Assembly: GCA_963790465.1 (NCBI GenBank)
Contig: CAWBOP010000011.1
Location: forward strand, 73,984-137,983
From: Terriglobia bacterium
GTDB taxonomy: Bacteria; Acidobacteriota; Polarisedimenticolia; Polarisedimenticolales; JAIQFR01
Length of the DNA stretch: 64,000 nucleotides
Direction: 5' to 3'
Positions 48-9,169 of this stretch are shown piece by piece. The translations under genes were made by a program, and so were the position numbers. The notes beneath the pieces are model-generated. The model was not told the DNA's origin, did no database searches, and saw only the letters and a program-made list of their open reading frames with translations. Each line of letters starts with the position of its first letter. Within the stretch, counting starts at the first letter, position 1.

Positions 48-2014
<1,967 letters not shown>

Positions 2015-2132
2015 CCCGGCTCTCCCTCCCTCTCACCCCCTGGGACGGTGAAGGCCGGGCACTCGCCAGGCCTTCCCGTTTCCCGGGACGCATCGACGCC
2101 CAAGCGGCCGCCGGAAGTTCGCGGACGGAGGG

Positions 2133-3395
2133 TTACGGCGCGCCGGCGGGGAGGAAACTCGTCACCACCATGAGCGCGGTGAGTCCGACGAGAGCGACCG
2201 TCGTGACCCAGGCGATCATGTTGTAGACGGGACCGTTGGTGAACGAGCCCATGAGCGCCTCGTCGTTCACGAGGCGGAGCATGAACAGCAGCACGAACGG
2301 GAGGAGCACCCCGTTCATGATCTGCGAGATCAGGATGATCTTGAGGAGCGGAACCCCCGGCATGAGGATCATCCCCGCGCTCACCGCGATGATCCCGGTG
2401 TACAGGCTGTAAAACTCCGGCGCCTCGCTGAACGTCCGGTTCACGCCGGCCTCGAGCCCGAGACCCTCGCACACGCTGTACGCGGTGGCGAGCGGGAGGA
2501 TCGACGCGGCGAAGAGCGACGCGTTGGCGAGGCCGAAGGCGAACAGCGTCTCGGCGTAGCGCCCCGCGAGAGGCGCGAGCGCCCGCGCCGCCTCGGCCGC
2601 GGACCCGATCGAGTAAAGCCCCGCCTCGTGGAGCGTCGCCGCACAGGCCACGACGATGAAGAACGCCACCACCACCGCCATGATCGAGCCCATGATCACG
2701 TCGAGGCGGGACTTGGCGTAATCGGCGATCCGGACCTCTTTCTCGACGACCGAGGACTGCAAGTAGAACTGCATCCAGGGCGCGATGGTCGTGCCGACGA
2801 TCCCCACGATCATGGCGATCGACTGGAGATCGATCCGCATCGAAGGGACGAGCGTTCCCCGCGCCGCCTCGCCCCAGTCCGGCTTGGCGATGAACCCGGA
2901 GATCGGATAGGCGAGGTACAACAGGCAGGCGATGAGGAACGCCTTCTCCACCGTCTTGTAGTTGCCGAACACCACGAGCCACCAGACGAAGACCGCCCCC
3001 AGTGGGACCGAGACGTAGCGGCTCACGCCGAACAGCTCGAGCGCCGAGGCAAGCCCCGCGAACTCCGCCACCGCGTTCCCGAGGTTCGTGAAGAGCACCG
3101 CCATCATCAGGAGAAACGTCACGCGCAGGCCGAATTCTTCCCGGATCAGGTCGGCGAGCCCCTTGCCGGTCACCGTCCCCATGCGCGAGCACATCTCCTG
3201 CACGACGATGAGAGCGACCGTGATCGGGATCAGGATCCAGAGGAGCTGGTAACCGTAACGCGCACCGCACAGCGAGTACGTGTAGATGCCGCCGGCATCG
3301 TTGTCCACGTTGCTCGTGATCACGCCGGGGCCCATCACCGCCAGGAGCAGGGCGATGCTGGTCCCGAGGCGGCGGAAAAAGCGGCCGAAGGGCAT
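2133..3395 (-). CDS. NRAMP/SLC11-family cation transporter with non-canonical metal-binding motifs (NRMT-like, possibly Mg2+)
   Basis: 420-aa polytopic ORF. GPGVITSNVDNDAGGIYTYSLCGARYGYQLLW aligns to NRAMP TM1, but the DPGN signature reads DAGG. The TM6 region GTTIAPWMQFYLQS replaces the canonical A..MPH. Confidence 0.85.
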   Translation of the reverse strand: MPFGRFFRRLGTSIALLLAVMGPGVITSNVDNDAGGIYTYSLCGARYGYQLLWILIPITVALIVVQEMCSRMGTVTGKGLADLIREEFGLRVTFLLMMAVLFTNLGNAVAEFAGLASALELFGVSRYVSVPLGAVFVWWLVVFGNYKTVEKAFLIACLLYLAYPISGFIAKPDWGEAARGTLVPSMRIDLQSIAMIVGIVGTTIAPWMQFYLQSSVVEKEVRIADYAKSRLDVIMGSIMAVVVAFFIVVACAATLHEAGLYSIGSAAEAARALAPLAGRYAETLFAFGLANASLFAASILPLATAYSVCEGLGLEAGVNRTFSEAPEFYSLYTGIIAVSAGMILMPGVPLLKIILISQIMNGVLLPFVLLFMLRLVNDEALMGSFTNGPVYNMIAWVTTVALVGLTALMVVTSFLPAGAP

Positions 3396-3398
3396 TCC

Positions 3399-4622
3399 CT
3401 AGTCCCCCGTCACCGCCCGGCTGAGGACGTCCTCGATGTTGATGAGCCCCACCAGCTCGCCGTACTCGTCCACGACCGCGAGGCCGCGCAGGTGGTACTT
3501 CTCGAACCGCTCCAGGATCTCCTTGAACCGCGCGGTCGGCGTGACCGCCCGGGCCTCGCGGCGCATGAAATCGGTCACCGGCCGGTCCTCGCTCGCCCTG
3601 ACGACCCGCCCGAGGGGGACCACTCCCACGAGGCGGCCGTCCGTCCCGACCACCGGAATCTCGTCGAGATCGCCGAGCAGATCCTCGTCCACCTCGCGCA
3701 GCTCGGCCAGGGTCCGCCCCACCGTCCACTCCGACTTCGCCTTGAAGAAGTCGGTCGTCATGAGACCGCCGGCGGTGTCGTCGTGGAAGCGGAGCAACTC
3801 CCGGACCTCCTCCGCGTCCTCTTGCTGCATCGCATCGAGCAGCGCACGGGAGCGCGCCTCGGGCAGGTCACCGAGAATGTCCGCCGCCTCGTCCGGCTGC
3901 ATCTCCTCCAGGAGGTCCGCCGCGTGCTCGACGTGGATCGCCTCGACCACCGCCGCCTGCACGCTCGGCTCCGCCTCCGACAGCGCCTGGGCCGCGGTCT
4001 CCGGGTCGAGGGCGGAGACGATCGCGCGGCGCTCGACCCGTCCGAGATCCTCGAGGATGTCCGCGAGATCCGCGGGGTGCATCTTCGCGAGGTGCTGGTG
4101 GACCTTGAGCCGGATCCGGGCGGTACCGGGCTCCACCAGCCCCACGTAGTCCCAGGGGATCGATCGTTCGGAGAGACCGTCCGCGATCCGGCGGACCACC
4201 ATCGGCCTGACGATCCCGGCGAGCAGGCGCCGGACCGCCCCGCCGAGCCCCACCTCGACGCGTTTCAGGACCAGCCGCTCGGCGGCGGGCTCGAGAAGAA
4301 TGTCGTTGACCTTGACCACCTTCCGGCCCTGGATGTCGATGATCTGCCGGTCGAGAACGTCGCGTTTGAGATGCAGCAGCTCGGATGCCTGCCCGTCGAC
4401 CGGCTCCGGTGCCGCTCCCTCGGCCAGCGCGACCCTGCGTGTCTCCGGCGAGAAGCTCTCCACCCCCTCCCACCGGACCCAGGTCCGCCTGCGGCCCGAT
4501 CGGAGCACCAGGCGATCGACGACCCCTCTCGACGAGTCCACGAGGAGATCGTCCACTCGGCCGACACGCCGGCCGCCGGCATCGAACACGGGGATGTTGA
4601 GCGCTTCGGAGAGATGCACCAC
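3399..4622 (-). CDS. Soluble MgtE-N-domain + tandem CBS protein with PRC-barrel-like N-terminus (no transporter membrane domain)
   Basis: MHPADLADILEDL...EEMQPDEAADILGDLP matches the MgtE N-domain pattern. It is followed by a CBS pair (TTDFFKAKSEWTV..., VTDFMRREARAVTP...GLAVVDEYGELVGLINIEDVL). Start chosen at GTG 4622, 8 nt after a GGAGGG RBS; the upstream 50 codons of ORF 3399..4775 look non-coding. The stop is 3 nt before the NRAMP start. Confidence 0.75.
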   Translation of the reverse strand: MVHLSEALNIPVFDAGGRRVGRVDDLLVDSSRGVVDRLVLRSGRRRTWVRWEGVESFSPETRRVALAEGAAPEPVDGQASELLHLKRDVLDRQIIDIQGRKVVKVNDILLEPAAERLVLKRVEVGLGGAVRRLLAGIVRPMVVRRIADGLSERSIPWDYVGLVEPGTARIRLKVHQHLAKMHPADLADILEDLGRVERRAIVSALDPETAAQALSEAEPSVQAAVVEAIHVEHAADLLEEMQPDEAADILGDLPEARSRALLDAMQQEDAEEVRELLRFHDDTAGGLMTTDFFKAKSEWTVGRTLAELREVDEDLLGDLDEIPVVGTDGRLVGVVPLGRVVRASEDRPVTDFMRREARAVTPTARFKEILERFEKYHLRGLAVVDEYGELVGLINIEDVLSRAVTGD

Positions 4623-4813
4623 GGAAGGACCCTCCGGTTCGGGGCGCGTGCTCGACGCCCGAGGTATTTCAGCCAGCAGCGGGGCAGGATGCCACGAACC
4701 GTGCATCGGCGTCGAGGCCCGGCGCGGGGTCTCTGGAAGCCGCGTGCTTGCAATCCCGGGGGATCGCGGGTACAAGTCCCGTTCGCTCGTCGCACTGTCG
4801 CACCGGAGACCGG

Positions 4814-7720
4814 ATGGCCGATCGCCGTACCCCTCTAGCCCCCGCCACGGACCGGCCGGACCCCCGGGGGGCCGCGCTCCCCTGGCTGTTCGGCGTCTCG
4901 GGCGCCGCGGCCCTGGTCCTCGAGGTGGTCTGGACGCGCTGGCTCGTGCTCTCCCTCGGGGCGAGCAGCCTCGCGGCGACCGTGGTGCTCGCCGTGTTCA
5001 TGGGAGGTCTCGGCGCGGGATCGTTCCTCGCGGGGCGCTTCGCGGACCGGCATCCGGATCGTGCGGTTGTCCTGTTCGCTTCGGCCGAAGCGCTCGTCGG
5101 GGCCTGGAGTTTCCTGTCCATTCTCCTTCTGGGGAGGTGGCTCCCGGGGCTCGCGGCGGCGATCGCGCGCGCCTTCGACGCGCCGGCCCTGCCGCTGCCG
5201 CTTCGAGTCGCGATCGCGGCACTGGCGCTCGCTCCCCCCACGTTACTGATGGGAGCGACGCTCCCTCTTCTCGCGCGGTGGGCGGGAACCGCCGGCATGC
5301 TTCCCGGAAAGGGAACCGGCACGCTTTACACGCTGAACACGCTCGGAGGCATGGCGGGAGCGCTTCTCGCCACGTTCGTCCTGATCGACCGGCTCGGACT
5401 CGCCGGCAGCGCGGCGATCGCGGGCGCCGCGGATCTGTCGGTCGCGGCCGCGGCCTTTCTCCTCTTTCGCGGCGTGGCAACGGGGGAAAAGCGCGGCGCA
5501 CCTCGGCGCGAGGCGCCACGTCCCGCGACTCCCGCCGTGCCCGCCGCCGCGCCGTCCTCCGAACGGGCGATCTTCGCGGCCGTGGCGGCCGCGTACTTCG
5601 TTTCCGGATTTGTCGGCCTCGCCCTCGAGGTCGTGTCGCATCGCATCCTCGCGATCCTCGCGGGCTCGAGCGTGTACGCGTTCACGGTGATGCTCGCCGC
5701 GTTCCTCGCGGGAATCGCCGGAGGAAGCGCGATCGCTTCACGGTGGGCCGACCGGGTGCGAGAGCCGCTGGCTTGGGTCGGCATGACCTTGGGAGGGCTC
5801 GCGCTCGGGACCGGCTTCGCGCAGCGCTGCTTCGACGCGGGCGGCTGGTCCGCCGCCGGACGCGCGGCGGCGGCGGTGCCCGGACTCGGCGGAGGGTCGT
5901 ACGGATTCGAGTTGGTGGGCTGTCTCGCGACGCTCCTTCCCGCGACCTTGATGCTCGGCGCGGTGCTCCCGTTCGTCGCGAGAGCCGCCGGGTCGGTGCC
6001 CGACCGGTTCGCAGGGCGTTTTGGAGGCGCGTACGCGCTCAACACGGCAGGCGCCGTCCTCGGCGCGGTCGCGGCCGGATGGGTGCTCGTCCCGGCACTC
6101 GGTACCGGCCTGTCGCTGTCGCTCTTGACCCTGCTGGCGGGAGCGGCCGGGACCCTGGCCGTGCTCGCCGCGGTTCCGCGTTCCTCCCGTGCCGTTCCCG
6201 CGGCTGTTGCCGCCGGTCTCACGGCCGCGGGACTCGCGCTTGGCTGGGGCGCGGATCCGGTCAAGACCGCGCTCGACCGGCAGGTCGAGAAGAGCCCGCT
6301 CCTCGCCTTCCGGGAGGGCCCCGTCCAGACGCTGGCGGTGATCCGGGAGGAGAACGACCTTCAGCTCGGCTTCCTGAGGATGATCGCGAACCAGACCAGC
6401 CTCACCGGGACGCACCTTTACTCGCGCCGCTACATGACGCTGCTCTCGCACCTGCCCGCGCTCTGGGGACCGGTCCCGAAGCGCGCGCTCGTGATCTGCT
6501 TCGGCACCGGTATCACTGCGGGCGCCGCCACCTACCCGACGCTCGACCGGCTCGACATCGCGGAGATCTCGCCGGAGGTGATCGAGGTCTCGCCGCTCTT
6601 CCGCGAAGAGAACGGGAACGTTCTCGCCGACCCCCGGGTGCGGCTCCACGTGGAGGACGGCCGGCAGGTGCTTCTCGCCTCCCGCGACCCCTGGGATTTC
6701 GTCACGCTCGAGCCGCCTCCGCCGAGGGACTCCGGCGTCGTGTCCTTGTATTCCTCCGACTTCTACCGGCTGTGCCGGCGGCGATTGACCCCGGGCGGAG
6801 TGGTGGCGCAGTGGATTCCGCTTCTCTCCCAGTCGCGGGACGAGATCCGGATGCTCGTCCGCACCTTCGTGGACGCGTTCCCGCACGCGCTGGGGTTCCT
6901 CCCGGTGGAGCGCGATCTGATCCTTCTCGGCTCCGATCGTCCCCTCGTGATCGACCCCGCCGAGACGGCTCGCCGGATGGCCGATCCGGCGGTGAGGCGG
7001 TCGCTGGCCGAAATCGGTTTCGACGAGCCCGCGGACCTTCTCGCCGCCGCGGTCGCCGATCGCGCGTCGCTCGCGCGATTCGCGGGAGACGCCGAGACGG
7101 TCTCGGACGACCGGCCGCGAGTCGAGGTGTTCGCGCGCTACGGCAAGCGCGTGCCACGGCCGGACGTCTCGGCGCTCGTGGCGTCCCTCCCGCCTCTTGG
7201 CGAGCTGGCGTCGCCCGAGCCGCCTCCCGCCGCACGGATGCGATTCGAGACCGCCCGCGGCGCGCTCCTCGCGTCTCTCGGAGGCGGCTGGGCCCGCGAG
7301 GCACGGCGAGGAGCGGACTGGGAAGCGCTGTCGGTCCGGGCGGTCAAGCTCCGGCCTGAAGACCCTTATTACCTCTGGGCGGCCGGGCTGTCCGACGAGC
7401 ACCTGCGTCGGATGGCGGAGCGTGCCGGACGCGCCGTGGAGGCCGGTCGAGGCAAGGAAGGGGCCGAGGCCTGGACCTCGTTCGGGATGCTGTGCGCGAG
7501 GCGCGGGCGCTACGCCGGCGCCGTCGACGCCTATCGCAAGGCGATCGCTCTCACCCCTTCGAGCACGGACCTGCTGTTCAACCTCGGAATGCTTCTCGAT
7601 GGCCCGGGCGGCAAGCCCGACGAGGGAAAAGCGATGCTTCGGCGATTCATCGAACTCGCTCCTTCCGATCCCGCGGCCGAGGCCGCCCGGCAGAGGCTCG
7701 CCTCTCCGGAACGCCGGTAG
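4814..7720 (+). CDS. Fused polytopic membrane domain / spermidine-synthase-like methyltransferase-fold protein with C-terminal TPR
   Basis: The N-terminal roughly 480 aa contain many hydrophobic helices. The middle carries LVICFGTGITAGAA...DIAEISPEVIEV...DFVTLEPPPP...TPGGVVAQWIP (spermidine synthase-like). The C-terminus has TPR-like AGAVDAYRKAIALTPSSTDLLFNLG. ATG 4814 is preceded by GGAG. Confidence 0.8.
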   Translation: MADRRTPLAPATDRPDPRGAALPWLFGVSGAAALVLEVVWTRWLVLSLGASSLAATVVLAVFMGGLGAGSFLAGRFADRHPDRAVVLFASAEALVGAWSFLSILLLGRWLPGLAAAIARAFDAPALPLPLRVAIAALALAPPTLLMGATLPLLARWAGTAGMLPGKGTGTLYTLNTLGGMAGALLATFVLIDRLGLAGSAAIAGAADLSVAAAAFLLFRGVATGEKRGAPRREAPRPATPAVPAAAPSSERAIFAAVAAAYFVSGFVGLALEVVSHRILAILAGSSVYAFTVMLAAFLAGIAGGSAIASRWADRVREPLAWVGMTLGGLALGTGFAQRCFDAGGWSAAGRAAAAVPGLGGGSYGFELVGCLATLLPATLMLGAVLPFVARAAGSVPDRFAGRFGGAYALNTAGAVLGAVAAGWVLVPALGTGLSLSLLTLLAGAAGTLAVLAAVPRSSRAVPAAVAAGLTAAGLALGWGADPVKTALDRQVEKSPLLAFREGPVQTLAVIREENDLQLGFLRMIANQTSLTGTHLYSRRYMTLLSHLPALWGPVPKRALVICFGTGITAGAATYPTLDRLDIAEISPEVIEVSPLFREENGNVLADPRVRLHVEDGRQVLLASRDPWDFVTLEPPPPRDSGVVSLYSSDFYRLCRRRLTPGGVVAQWIPLLSQSRDEIRMLVRTFVDAFPHALGFLPVERDLILLGSDRPLVIDPAETARRMADPAVRRSLAEIGFDEPADLLAAAVADRASLARFAGDAETVSDDRPRVEVFARYGKRVPRPDVSALVASLPPLGELASPEPPPAARMRFETARGALLASLGGGWAREARRGADWEALSVRAVKLRPEDPYYLWAAGLSDEHLRRMAERAGRAVEAGRGKEGAEAWTSFGMLCARRGRYAGAVDAYRKAIALTPSSTDLLFNLGMLLDGPGGKPDEGKAMLRRFIELAPSDPAAEAARQRLASPERR

Positions 7721-7729
7721 GTCCGGGCC

Positions 7730-9169
7730 GTGGACCGCCGCGCGTTCTTCGTGGGAGGCCGGGAAACGATCGCCTCCGGCACGATCGAGGTCGCGAGCCC
7801 CTTCGACGGACGGCCGGTCGCGACCGTCTGCCGCGCGTCCGCGGGAGACCTCGACGCGGCGCTCGACGCCGCCGTCCGGGGCTTCGGCGCGGTCCGGGCG
7901 CTTCCGGCGTGGAAGCGGTCCGATCTGCTGCACGACGTGTCCCGTCGGCTGGCCGCGGCGAAGGAGCGATTCGCGAGAACCATCGCCCTCGAGGCGGGCA
8001 AGCCGATCGTCCAGGCGCGCTCCGAGGTGGATCGCGCCGTCCTCACGTTCCGGACCGCCGCCGAGGAAGCGCTCCGGATCGGCGGAGAGGTCCTGCCGCT
8101 CGACCTCTTCCCGGGGAACGACGGCCGCCTGGCGATCTGGCGGCGCTTCCCGCTGGGACCGGTCGCGTGCATCACGCCGTTCAACTTTCCGCTGAACCTC
8201 GTCGCCCATAAGGTCGCGCCCGCGATCGCCGCCGGCTGCTCGTTCGTGCTCAAGCCGGCGTCGAAGACCCCGCTCTCCGCTCTCGACCTCGCCGGTTTGC
8301 TGCTCGAGGCCGGAGTGCCGGGGGACGCGGTGTCGGTCCTCCCGATGGCCGGCTCGGAGGCGGGGGCGCTGGCGGACGACCCGCGGACTCGCGCGCTCTC
8401 CTTCACCGGATCCCCCTCCGTCGGCTGGGATCTGAAGCGGCGCGCGTACCGCAAGAAGGTGGTGCTGGAGCTCGGGGGGAATGCCGGCCTGATCGTGGAC
8501 CGTTCGGCCGATCTCCCGCTCGCGGCGGCGCGGGCCGCGGCCGGCGGGTTCTGGCAGGCGGGCCAGAGCTGCATCTCGGTGCAGCGGATCCTCGCGCACC
8601 AGGAGGTGTTTGATTCCTTCGTCGAGCGCTTTCTCGAGGCGGTGCGCGGACTCGTTCCCGGCGATCCTCTCGACGACCGGACGACCGTCGGCCCGGTGAT
8701 CTCGGCCGAGGACGCAGAGCGAATCGAAACCTGGATCGGCGAGGCGGTCTCGGGGGGGGCGCGCGTGCTCGCGGGGGGCGGCCGCCGCGGCAACCTGGTG
8801 GAGCCGACCGTGCTCACCGGCACCCGCCCGGACATGAAGGTTTGCGGGAAGGAACTGTTCGGGCCGGTCGTCGTCGTCGAGCCCTACGGCGACGTCGAGG
8901 AGGCGATCGCCGAGATCGACCGCTCCAGCTACGGCCTCCAGGCCGGGATCTTCACGCGCGATCTCCCCACGGCGATGGCCGCATGGGAACGGATCGAGGT
9001 GGGGGCGGTCGTCGTCAACGACGTCCCGACGTACCGCCTCGACCCGATGCCTTACGGCGGCGTCAAGGACTCAGGCCGAGGCAGGGAAGGGCCGCGCTGG
9101 GCGATCGAGGACTACACCGAGATGCGGCTGCTCGTGATCAACGGCGCCATCGCGACCGCTCAGCCGTAA
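7730..9169 (+). CDS. NAD(P)-dependent aldehyde dehydrogenase family protein
   Basis: 479 aa with ALDH signatures FNFPLNL, VLELGGNAG and catalytic-Cys context GQSCISVQR. GTG start. Confidence 0.9.
   Translation: MDRRAFFVGGRETIASGTIEVASPFDGRPVATVCRASAGDLDAALDAAVRGFGAVRALPAWKRSDLLHDVSRRLAAAKERFARTIALEAGKPIVQARSEVDRAVLTFRTAAEEALRIGGEVLPLDLFPGNDGRLAIWRRFPLGPVACITPFNFPLNLVAHKVAPAIAAGCSFVLKPASKTPLSALDLAGLLLEAGVPGDAVSVLPMAGSEAGALADDPRTRALSFTGSPSVGWDLKRRAYRKKVVLELGGNAGLIVDRSADLPLAAARAAAGGFWQAGQSCISVQRILAHQEVFDSFVERFLEAVRGLVPGDPLDDRTTVGPVISAEDAERIETWIGEAVSGGARVLAGGGRRGNLVEPTVLTGTRPDMKVCGKELFGPVVVVEPYGDVEEAIAEIDRSSYGLQAGIFTRDLPTAMAAWERIEVGAVVVNDVPTYRLDPMPYGGVKDSGRGREGPRWAIEDYTEMRLLVINGAIATAQP

Follow-up and report, generated by a model that had tools for sequence, protein, structure and literature searches.

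Introduction

Among bacterial Mg2+ importers, the Nramp-related Mg2+ transporters (NRMTs) make up the fourth class, and to our knowledge no regulator of these proteins has been shown. Unregulated, potential-driven uptake by NRMTs, which are not proton-coupled, would overload the cell, and their conserved partner, a soluble relative of the Mg2+ channel MgtE, has been an obvious regulator candidate since 2014. Here we analyze such a gene pair in a Terriglobia bacterium (assembly GCA_963790465.1, contig CAWBOP010000011.1, positions 73,984–137,983 of the forward strand), this stretch of 64,000 nucleotides (nt) being referred to below as the window. The pair consists of an nrmT-type transporter gene and, directly upstream of it, a gene for a 407-residue MgtE-like protein, hereafter the accessory protein; as a two-gene operon, the pair belongs to the published “MgtE-fragment + nrmT” type.

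Operons of this type were described by Shin et al. (2014, PMC4072509), who named NrmT and noticed that most nrmT genes adjoin a gene for a homologue of the MgtE cytoplasmic domain. For this MgtE fragment, either a feedback control of transport from the cytoplasm or a role as metal chaperone was proposed, and an M-box leader was found in only a subset of the operons (PMC4072509). Compared by their published description, the operons of C. acetobutylicum (Ca_c0685) and A. capsulatum (Acp2976/Acp2977) contain the same pair in the same order as the window, and that of A. capsulatum is without an M-box, as is the window. PRC barrels are unmentioned in that description, whereas the window accessory protein has two. 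A sequence-only reading of the present DNA had supposed the pairing to be uncharacterized; this does not hold, as the pair has been known since 2014, was co-expressed in that work, and the regulatory hypothesis is that of Shin et al. In the literature searched, NRMT and MgtE occur together only in that study and in the paper on EleNRMT of Eggerthella lenta, the latter without gene context, and no paper was found that combines a PRC barrel with MgtE, Nramp or CBS.

EleNRMT is the structurally characterized member of the clade (PDB 7QIA, 7QIC, 7QJI, 7QJJ). NRMTs have been defined by a DxxG motif in helix 1 replacing DxxN and by TxxA/T in helix 6 replacing A/CxxM; the histidines of helix 6b are replaced by non-protonatable residues, and the binding site is widened so as to take a hydrated ion (Ramanadane et al., 2022, PMC8806188). 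EleNRMT is reported to carry Mg2+ and Mn2+, not Ca2+, without proton coupling. The cytoplasmic domains of MgtE are established gating sensors (PMC5882242, PMC5529423). What appears to be new in the present analysis is the tandem PRC-barrel N-terminus of the accessory protein, the retention of the Mg4/Mg6 ligands together with the loss of Mg5, of the plug helix and of the ATP residues, and the existence of complete PRC-N-CBS MgtE-like relatives.

The NRMT-type transporter

The transporter matches the Pfam Nramp family (PF01566) over profile positions 2–356 of 357 with an E value of 3e-98, and carries ...SNVDNDAGGIYTY... and ...GTTIAPWMQFY.... Its first transmembrane helix (TM1) reads D33-A-G-G36 (NDAGG, within NDAGGIYTY), which contains the DxxG signature, and TM6 reads T202-T-I-A205-P-W207 (GTTIAPW), which contains TxxA. 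Both helix-6b histidine positions, the two proton-pathway positions tested in the alignment columns, are replaced, by W207 and L212. The helix-1 glycine of DxxG is present in all 81 related loci, in place of the asparagine of DraNramp.

Among solved structures the closest relative is EleNRMT (7qia; E 2.6e-114, 386 bits, residues 13–413 aligned), with 48% identity overall, while the best MntH/NRAMP structures match with E values from 7e-26 to 1e-8 and at most 94 bits for the top MntH. NDAGG and GTTIAPW are identical in EleNRMT, which likewise has Trp at the first TM6b histidine position and keeps the TM3 glutamate; at the second TM6b position it has Asn, whereas the window transporter has Leu. 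In a neighbor-joining (NJ) tree rooted on DraNramp, the transporter is placed within the NRMT group beside its 82%-identity relative, and the canonical DPGN/M Nramp of that same relative lies well apart from it. Because of the EleNRMT match, the DxxG/TxxA signature and the tree placement, the transporter is assigned on sequence grounds to the NRMT clade as a bona fide member, and not to the MntH clade. The sequence-only reading, which had seen a transporter without the transition-metal motifs and of NRMT rather than MntH type, is thus upheld on the motifs, the structure matches and the phylogenetic placement. By homology to EleNRMT, the window protein would be an importer of Mg2+ (and Mn2+) without proton coupling.

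The MgtE-like accessory protein

Pfam recognizes a PRC domain, an MgtE N domain and two CBS stretches in the accessory protein (Table 1), and the domain matches of both proteins lie far beyond chance. No hydrophobic segment was found in the accessory protein. The PF01769 pore domain and the plug helix are absent, the C-terminus being the equivalent of residue 256 of T. thermophilus MgtE (TtMgtE); therefore the protein is not an MgtE channel. A PDB sequence search with the protein finds cytoplasmic domains of MgtE over the C-terminal 230 residues (8gps, 6e-25; 8gpv, 5e-22; 2yvy, 5e-19). An AlphaFold2 model with a mean predicted local distance difference test score (pLDDT) of 86.6 comprises a barrel at residues 1–66, another at 82–156, a helical N domain at 172–277 and a CBS pair at 284–405, and over those 230 C-terminal residues it superposes on the MgtE cytoplasmic domains 8gpv, 8gps and 2yvy with target-normalized TM-scores (TMt) of 0.80–0.85 and root-mean-square deviations (rmsd) of 2.4–2.8 Å. 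These results bear out the earlier suggestion of an MgtE N and CBS module without any membrane domain.

The N-terminal part was modeled separately (first 170 residues, pLDDT 88.2). Its top fold match is the tandem-PRC protein pair CdpB1/CdpB2 (8qzo; 133–139 columns, E 2.6e-5), and it also matches single PRC barrels, e.g., MTH1859 and the reaction-centre H subunit. Because of these fold matches to tandem-PRC proteins and single PRC barrels, the N-terminus is assigned, at the level of the model, as a tandem PRC-barrel module, which gives definite form to the PRC-barrel-like segments of the sequence-only reading. CdpB1/CdpB2 of Archaeoglobus fulgidus (PDB 8QZO, 8ONW) share the two-barrel arrangement, but at about 15% identity, with an archaeal cell division role and without MgtE or CBS parts, so that the likeness is in fold only. 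The second barrel holds LDxQIIDxxGxxVVxVND, the most conserved N-terminal motif of the accessory family.

The accessory protein has the same N and CBS fold as the MgtE cytoplasmic domain of T. thermophilus (2YVY/2YVX) and of 8GPS and 8GPV, and differs from MgtE in having two added N-terminal PRC barrels, no plug helix or PF01769 pore, and substitutions at several sensor sites. The functional Mg2+ sites of TtMgtE have been listed, and mutations at its Mg4/Mg6 sites leave MgtE open (PMC5882242). We aligned these sites to the window protein and 65 relatives, i.e., 66 family members. At Mg4, TtMgtE D91 corresponds to window D244 (Asp in 52 of the 66) and D247 to D398 (Asp in 55), and at Mg6, D95 corresponds to D248, with Asp in all but two members (64/66). 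Mg7 is less well kept, E59 being aligned to Q212 in the window (Asp or Glu in 44/66). The Mg5 ligands D226 and D250 are not conserved and correspond to H377 and S401; in close relatives H377 hardly varies. With the plug helix, the sites Mg2 and Mg3 are missing as well.

ATP contacts in the MgtE CBS domain are made by Y170, R187, D188, N203 and F227 (PMC5529423). The window residues at these positions are E, G, R, R and L, respectively, with Leu predominating family-wide at F227. MgtE-like ATP sensing by the accessory protein was therefore discarded as a reading, since the contact residues are not conserved. Because Mg4/Mg6 are kept while the plug helix and the ATP residues are gone, the protein retains, as far as the alignment can tell, that portion of the MgtE sensor by which the N domain is clamped to the CBS pair, and the parts that couple it to the pore and to ATP are lost.

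Conservation of the gene pair

One genome per species with NRMT motifs was scanned, which gave 80 loci whose NRMTs are 56–64% identical to the window protein. They span Acidobacteriota, Desulfobacterota, Nitrospirota, Omnitrophota, Zixibacteria, Binatia, Planctomycetota, Verrucomicrobiota, Firmicutes, Actinomycetota and one gammaproteobacterial metagenome-assembled genome; Ca_c0685 and Acp2976/Acp2977 are not in this set. Upstream sequence is available for 79 loci, which are thus testable. In 67 of the 79, an accessory gene precedes the NRMT gene on the same strand, and the estimated gap is at most 262 nt in 61 of these; the PRC part is in frame in nearly all of the linked accessory genes. A single locus has the accessory gene on the opposite strand, and the remaining 11 show none in the available sequence. 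Three close relatives of the accessory protein (64–82% identical) have an Nramp gene 2–4 nt downstream, and their flanking genes differ. Because the flanking genes differ while the gaps of 2–4 nt persist, it is the pair that is conserved and not the neighborhood. The pairing is real and widespread, and gene-neighborhood conservation, which the sequence-only reading had left as a check, is borne out.

A Rosetta-stone fusion of the accessory protein with Nramp was sought and discarded as a candidate, since a stop codon separates the genes in all 67 loci. Likewise, among the best 150 representatives of a protein search (see below) none is long enough to be an accessory–Nramp fusion, the longer ones carrying an MgtE-type or divergent domain of about five TM segments. 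The N-terminal cytoplasmic tails of NRMTs were searched for a docking motif, and no difference was found between loci with and without an accessory gene.

In 9 of the 80 loci, several of them from Terriglobia, the accessory gene is directly preceded by an M-box riboswitch (RF00380), but the window is without it. No Rfam element, the M-box included, turned up upstream of the pair when all 64 kb were scanned at gathering thresholds, nor was any found in 4400–5400 at E ≤ 10, and an nhmmer profile built from six relatives gave no M-box match in the window. Expression of the pair in the window organism is not M-box riboswitch-controlled.

Several neighbors of the pair in other genomes may be recorded here. 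Two close relatives have a second, canonical Nramp (DPGN / A..M) with a fused C-terminal Usp domain just downstream of the pair (L081, 8528–10471; L083, 7632–9242), with a DtxR/MntR-type repressor between the pair and the second Nramp in L083; the window has no second Nramp. In the Smithella/Syntrophales loci L009, L013, L022 and L043, a PyrR-binding-site RNA (RF00515) is located at about 3420–3550 (-), shortly upstream of the accessory gene but on the other strand. This RNA is part of a pyrimidine operon that runs divergently and has nothing to do with the pair.

Origin of the accessory protein

A HMMER search over 1.84 billion representatives returned 488 accessory homologues at E ≤ 1e-30. 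Among the best 150 of these, 119 are stand-alone proteins of 380–470 amino acids (aa), and 16 are longer (593–749 aa) with about five C-terminal hydrophobic segments. Six of the long proteins were scanned, and the MgtE pore domain PF01769 was found in three, the other three having a divergent membrane domain; that of P0180 can be aligned colinearly to the pore domain which P0146 shares with MgtE. A rough NJ tree, with T. thermophilus MgtE as outgroup, places 15 of the 16 proteins that bear a membrane domain beside this outgroup, the stand-alone proteins making up the remainder.

The proteins P0146, P0158 and P0163 (L084, L086; metagenomic, about 600 aa) combine PRC, MgtE_N, CBS and PF01769. 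Such PRC-bearing full-length MgtE-like proteins (593–749 aa) share the PRC-PRC-N-CBS front end with the window protein at 34–41% identity and have about five C-terminal TM segments, of which it has none. No description of an MgtE channel with two PRC barrels was found in the searched literature, and P0146, with its true MgtE pore, has no adjoining Nramp gene. The simplest reading of these comparisons is that the accessory protein would descend from a PRC-bearing MgtE-like channel by loss of the plug helix and the pore, the complete PRC-N-CBS MgtE-like proteins being its likely ancestors. If it does so descend, the PRC barrels are part of an ancestral regulatory module and not an NRMT-specific adaptor.

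Another arrangement is seen in L085 (1298–4447, metagenome contig Ga0591956_0007555), where an NRMT sharing 63% identity with EleNRMT has, 16 nt upstream, the gene for P0180, a 611-aa PRC-MgtE_N-CBS protein with a divergent domain of about five TM segments. The EleNRMT-like gene is preceded here by a membrane-bearing protein, whereas that of the window is preceded by a soluble one. The L085 locus suggests a membrane-anchored partner in the EleNRMT subclade, of which the EleNRMT paper makes no mention, and a membrane-anchored variant beside an NRMT fits an action at the membrane. P0223 and P0254 have the same kind of neighborhood as P0180 but no Nramp gene. In L087/L088 (4001–5956) and L089 (2782–5031), PRC-MgtE_N-CBS proteins of 651 and 749 aa, whose membrane domains are divergent, are encoded directly upstream of a 5-formyltetrahydrofolate cyclo-ligase gene, with no Nramp. 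The same cyclo-ligase gene follows the NRMT in L085, which looks like an insertion or a loss of the NRMT in between.

A possible gating mechanism and its alternatives

The conserved Mg4/Mg6 ligands of the accessory protein and the M-box upstream of the pair in relatives are compatible with an MgtE-type sensor that regulates the transporter in trans. In such a scheme, import of hydrated Mg2+ (and Mn2+) by the transporter would draw on the membrane potential and involve no proton coupling, and a uniporter of this kind would need feedback control because its uptake is, as we infer, uncoupled. High cytoplasmic Mg2+ would bind where the N and CBS domains meet (Mg4: D244, D398; Mg6: D248) and press the N domain against the CBS pair. 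Once closed, the accessory protein would dock on the transporter from the cytoplasmic side and block or slow uptake, giving the uncoupled uniporter a negative feedback such as MgtE and CorA have within their own chains. The PRC barrels would probably serve protein–protein contact or oligomerization. That the accessory protein gates the transporter directly is, in our estimate, an evenly balanced proposition. The more specific proposal of a detachable gating subunit, in which a pore-less descendant of a PRC-bearing MgtE channel attaches to an SLC11-fold uniporter and shuts it at high cytoplasmic Mg2+, with the PRC barrels in the docking or oligomerization surface, is put forward more tentatively. 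If true, it would mean that a channel-type Mg2+ sensor regulates a secondary-transporter fold in trans.

A number of observations weigh against such a gating role. Ca_c0685 alone rescued Mg2+-transport-deficient B. subtilis (PMC4072509), and purified EleNRMT works alone in liposomes (PMC8806188); because both function without one, an accessory protein is unnecessary for transport. Co-expression of the A. capsulatum pair in B. subtilis gave no gain in Mg2+ rescue, and its NrmT fully rescued a Mn2+ transport defect while rescuing Mg2+ transport only at millimolar levels (PMC4072509), for which reason Mg2+ specificity of the window transporter is not to be assumed. In the accessory protein itself, the Mg5 ligands have become His and Ser, the Mg7 glutamate has become Gln, the plug-helix sites Mg2 and Mg3 are missing, and the MgtE ATP-contact residues have not been kept. 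The absence of an M-box from the window and the 11 NRMT loci without an accessory gene point the same way.

Alternatively, the pair could serve mainly Mn2+ or broad divalent-cation uptake, the MgtE-like protein sensing Mn2+ or another metal. We regard this as unlikely, though it is the most serious competitor. The A. capsulatum result speaks for it; this organism belongs to the same phylum and its operon, like the window, has no M-box; EleNRMT also carries Mn2+, and the near-invariant H377 at the Mg5 position offers a softer ligand. However, the separate canonical Nramp of L081 and L083, accompanied in L083 by the DtxR/MntR-type repressor, would cover Mn2+ uptake in these relatives, an M-box precedes the same operon type in several Acidobacteriota, the NRMT site is widened for a hydrated ion, and the Mg4 and Mg6 carboxylates are conserved.

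As raised by Shin et al. (PMC4072509), the accessory protein could be a metal chaperone or buffer, and one may add an assembly or stabilizing factor, or even an activator. Acidic residues strongly prevail in its N and CBS domains (51 Asp/Glu vs. 27 Lys/Arg), and the plug helix through which MgtE transmits gating is missing, yet the conservation extends to specific interdomain ligands beyond overall acidity, MgtE cytoplasmic domains are known as gating sensors, and transport without the accessory protein argues against an obligatory assembly factor; we therefore hold a role of this kind to be rather improbable. Still lower do we rate the notion that the two proteins make no contact, the accessory protein acting on another target, being merely co-expressed, or being a decaying remnant of a split MgtE gene. 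It would account for the loci that lack the accessory gene and for the negative co-expression test of the A. capsulatum pair, but the gene order is kept over about ten phyla among differing flanking genes, and the membrane-anchored P0180 adjoins an NRMT. The decaying-remnant version is ruled out because the accessory reading frames are intact, of constant length, and number 488 representatives at the threshold given above.

Direct gating can be approached through several handles, namely the retained Mg4/Mg6 ligands, the lost ATP site and plug helix, the two PRC barrels, and the full-length or membrane-anchored relatives, all of which bear on the role of the partner. As for annotation, “NRMT-type Mg2+/Mn2+ transporter” and “MgtE-like cytoplasmic regulator” would be fitting names, and “MntH”, “magnesium transporter” and “flagellar motility protein MotE” are misleading.

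Gene organization and flanking genes

Open reading frames (ORFs) place both genes on the minus strand at the coordinates collected in Table 1, with an intergenic gap of 3 nt between the accessory gene and nrmT; the position, length and solubility of the upstream gene product are as the sequence-only reading had them.

Table 1. Coordinates of the gene pair, its junction and the domains of the accessory protein in the window
Feature	Position	Strand	Description
nrmT-type gene	2133..3395	-	420 aa; SLC11/Nramp fold, NRMT clade
Accessory gene	3399..4622	-	407-aa soluble protein; stop codon 3399–3401 included; two PRC barrels, MgtE N domain and CBS pair
Gene junction	3396..3408	-	Accessory end, TAG 3401–3399, spacer GGA 3398–3396, nrmT ATG 3395–3393
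CBS pair (aa 284–405)	3408..3773	-	Pfam CBS 4.5e-18, two stretches; holds D398, H377, S401
MgtE N domain (aa 181–282)	3777..4082	-	Pfam MgtE_N 1.5e-26; helical, strongly acidic; holds D244, D248
PRC barrel 2 (aa 82–156)	4155..4379	-	AlphaFold2 model, tandem-barrel match 8qzo; inserted pair of basic helices at aa 126–147
PRC barrel 1 (aa 1–66)	4425..4622	-	Pfam PRC 8.9e-11; beta strands with pLDDT >90; MTH1859 1pm3 TMt 0.84, rmsd 1.2 Å
Divergent intergenic region upstream of accessory gene	4623..4813	.	Ribosome-binding site GGAGGG 4635–4630

The longest ORF reading of the accessory gene extends over 3399–4775. GTG at 4622–4620 was taken as the start because the GGAGGG stands 7 nt upstream and because the resulting length of 407 aa is that of nearly all homologues, including the closest one (98% identical, 407 aa, 100% coverage). 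A Shine–Dalgarno-like GGGGGA run at 3408–3403, within the 3′ end of the accessory gene, precedes the nrmT ATG by 7 nt. Judged from the 3-nt gap, translational coupling of the two genes is plausible. A scan of 1900–5000 for a sigma-70 consensus promoter and an intrinsic terminator found none, which is uninformative at 70% GC.

Convergent with the NRMT gene is a gene of the S9 prolyl-oligopeptidase family at about 950–2226 (+), which is split across two frames: Peptidase_S9 profile positions 1–82 fall in the ORF 953..1768 and positions 123–185 in the ORF 1300..2226. The split implies that the frame shifts somewhere between about nt 1565 and 1700, owing either to a pseudogene or to an assembly indel. 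In the 990-aa product of the gene divergent from the pair (4748–7720, +), TPR repeats at the C-terminus accompany a spermidine-synthase-like domain and a membrane region with weak MFS likeness. This gene is followed by an aldehyde dehydrogenase gene at 7730–9169, and an aldehyde dehydrogenase gene is also close to the pair in L081.

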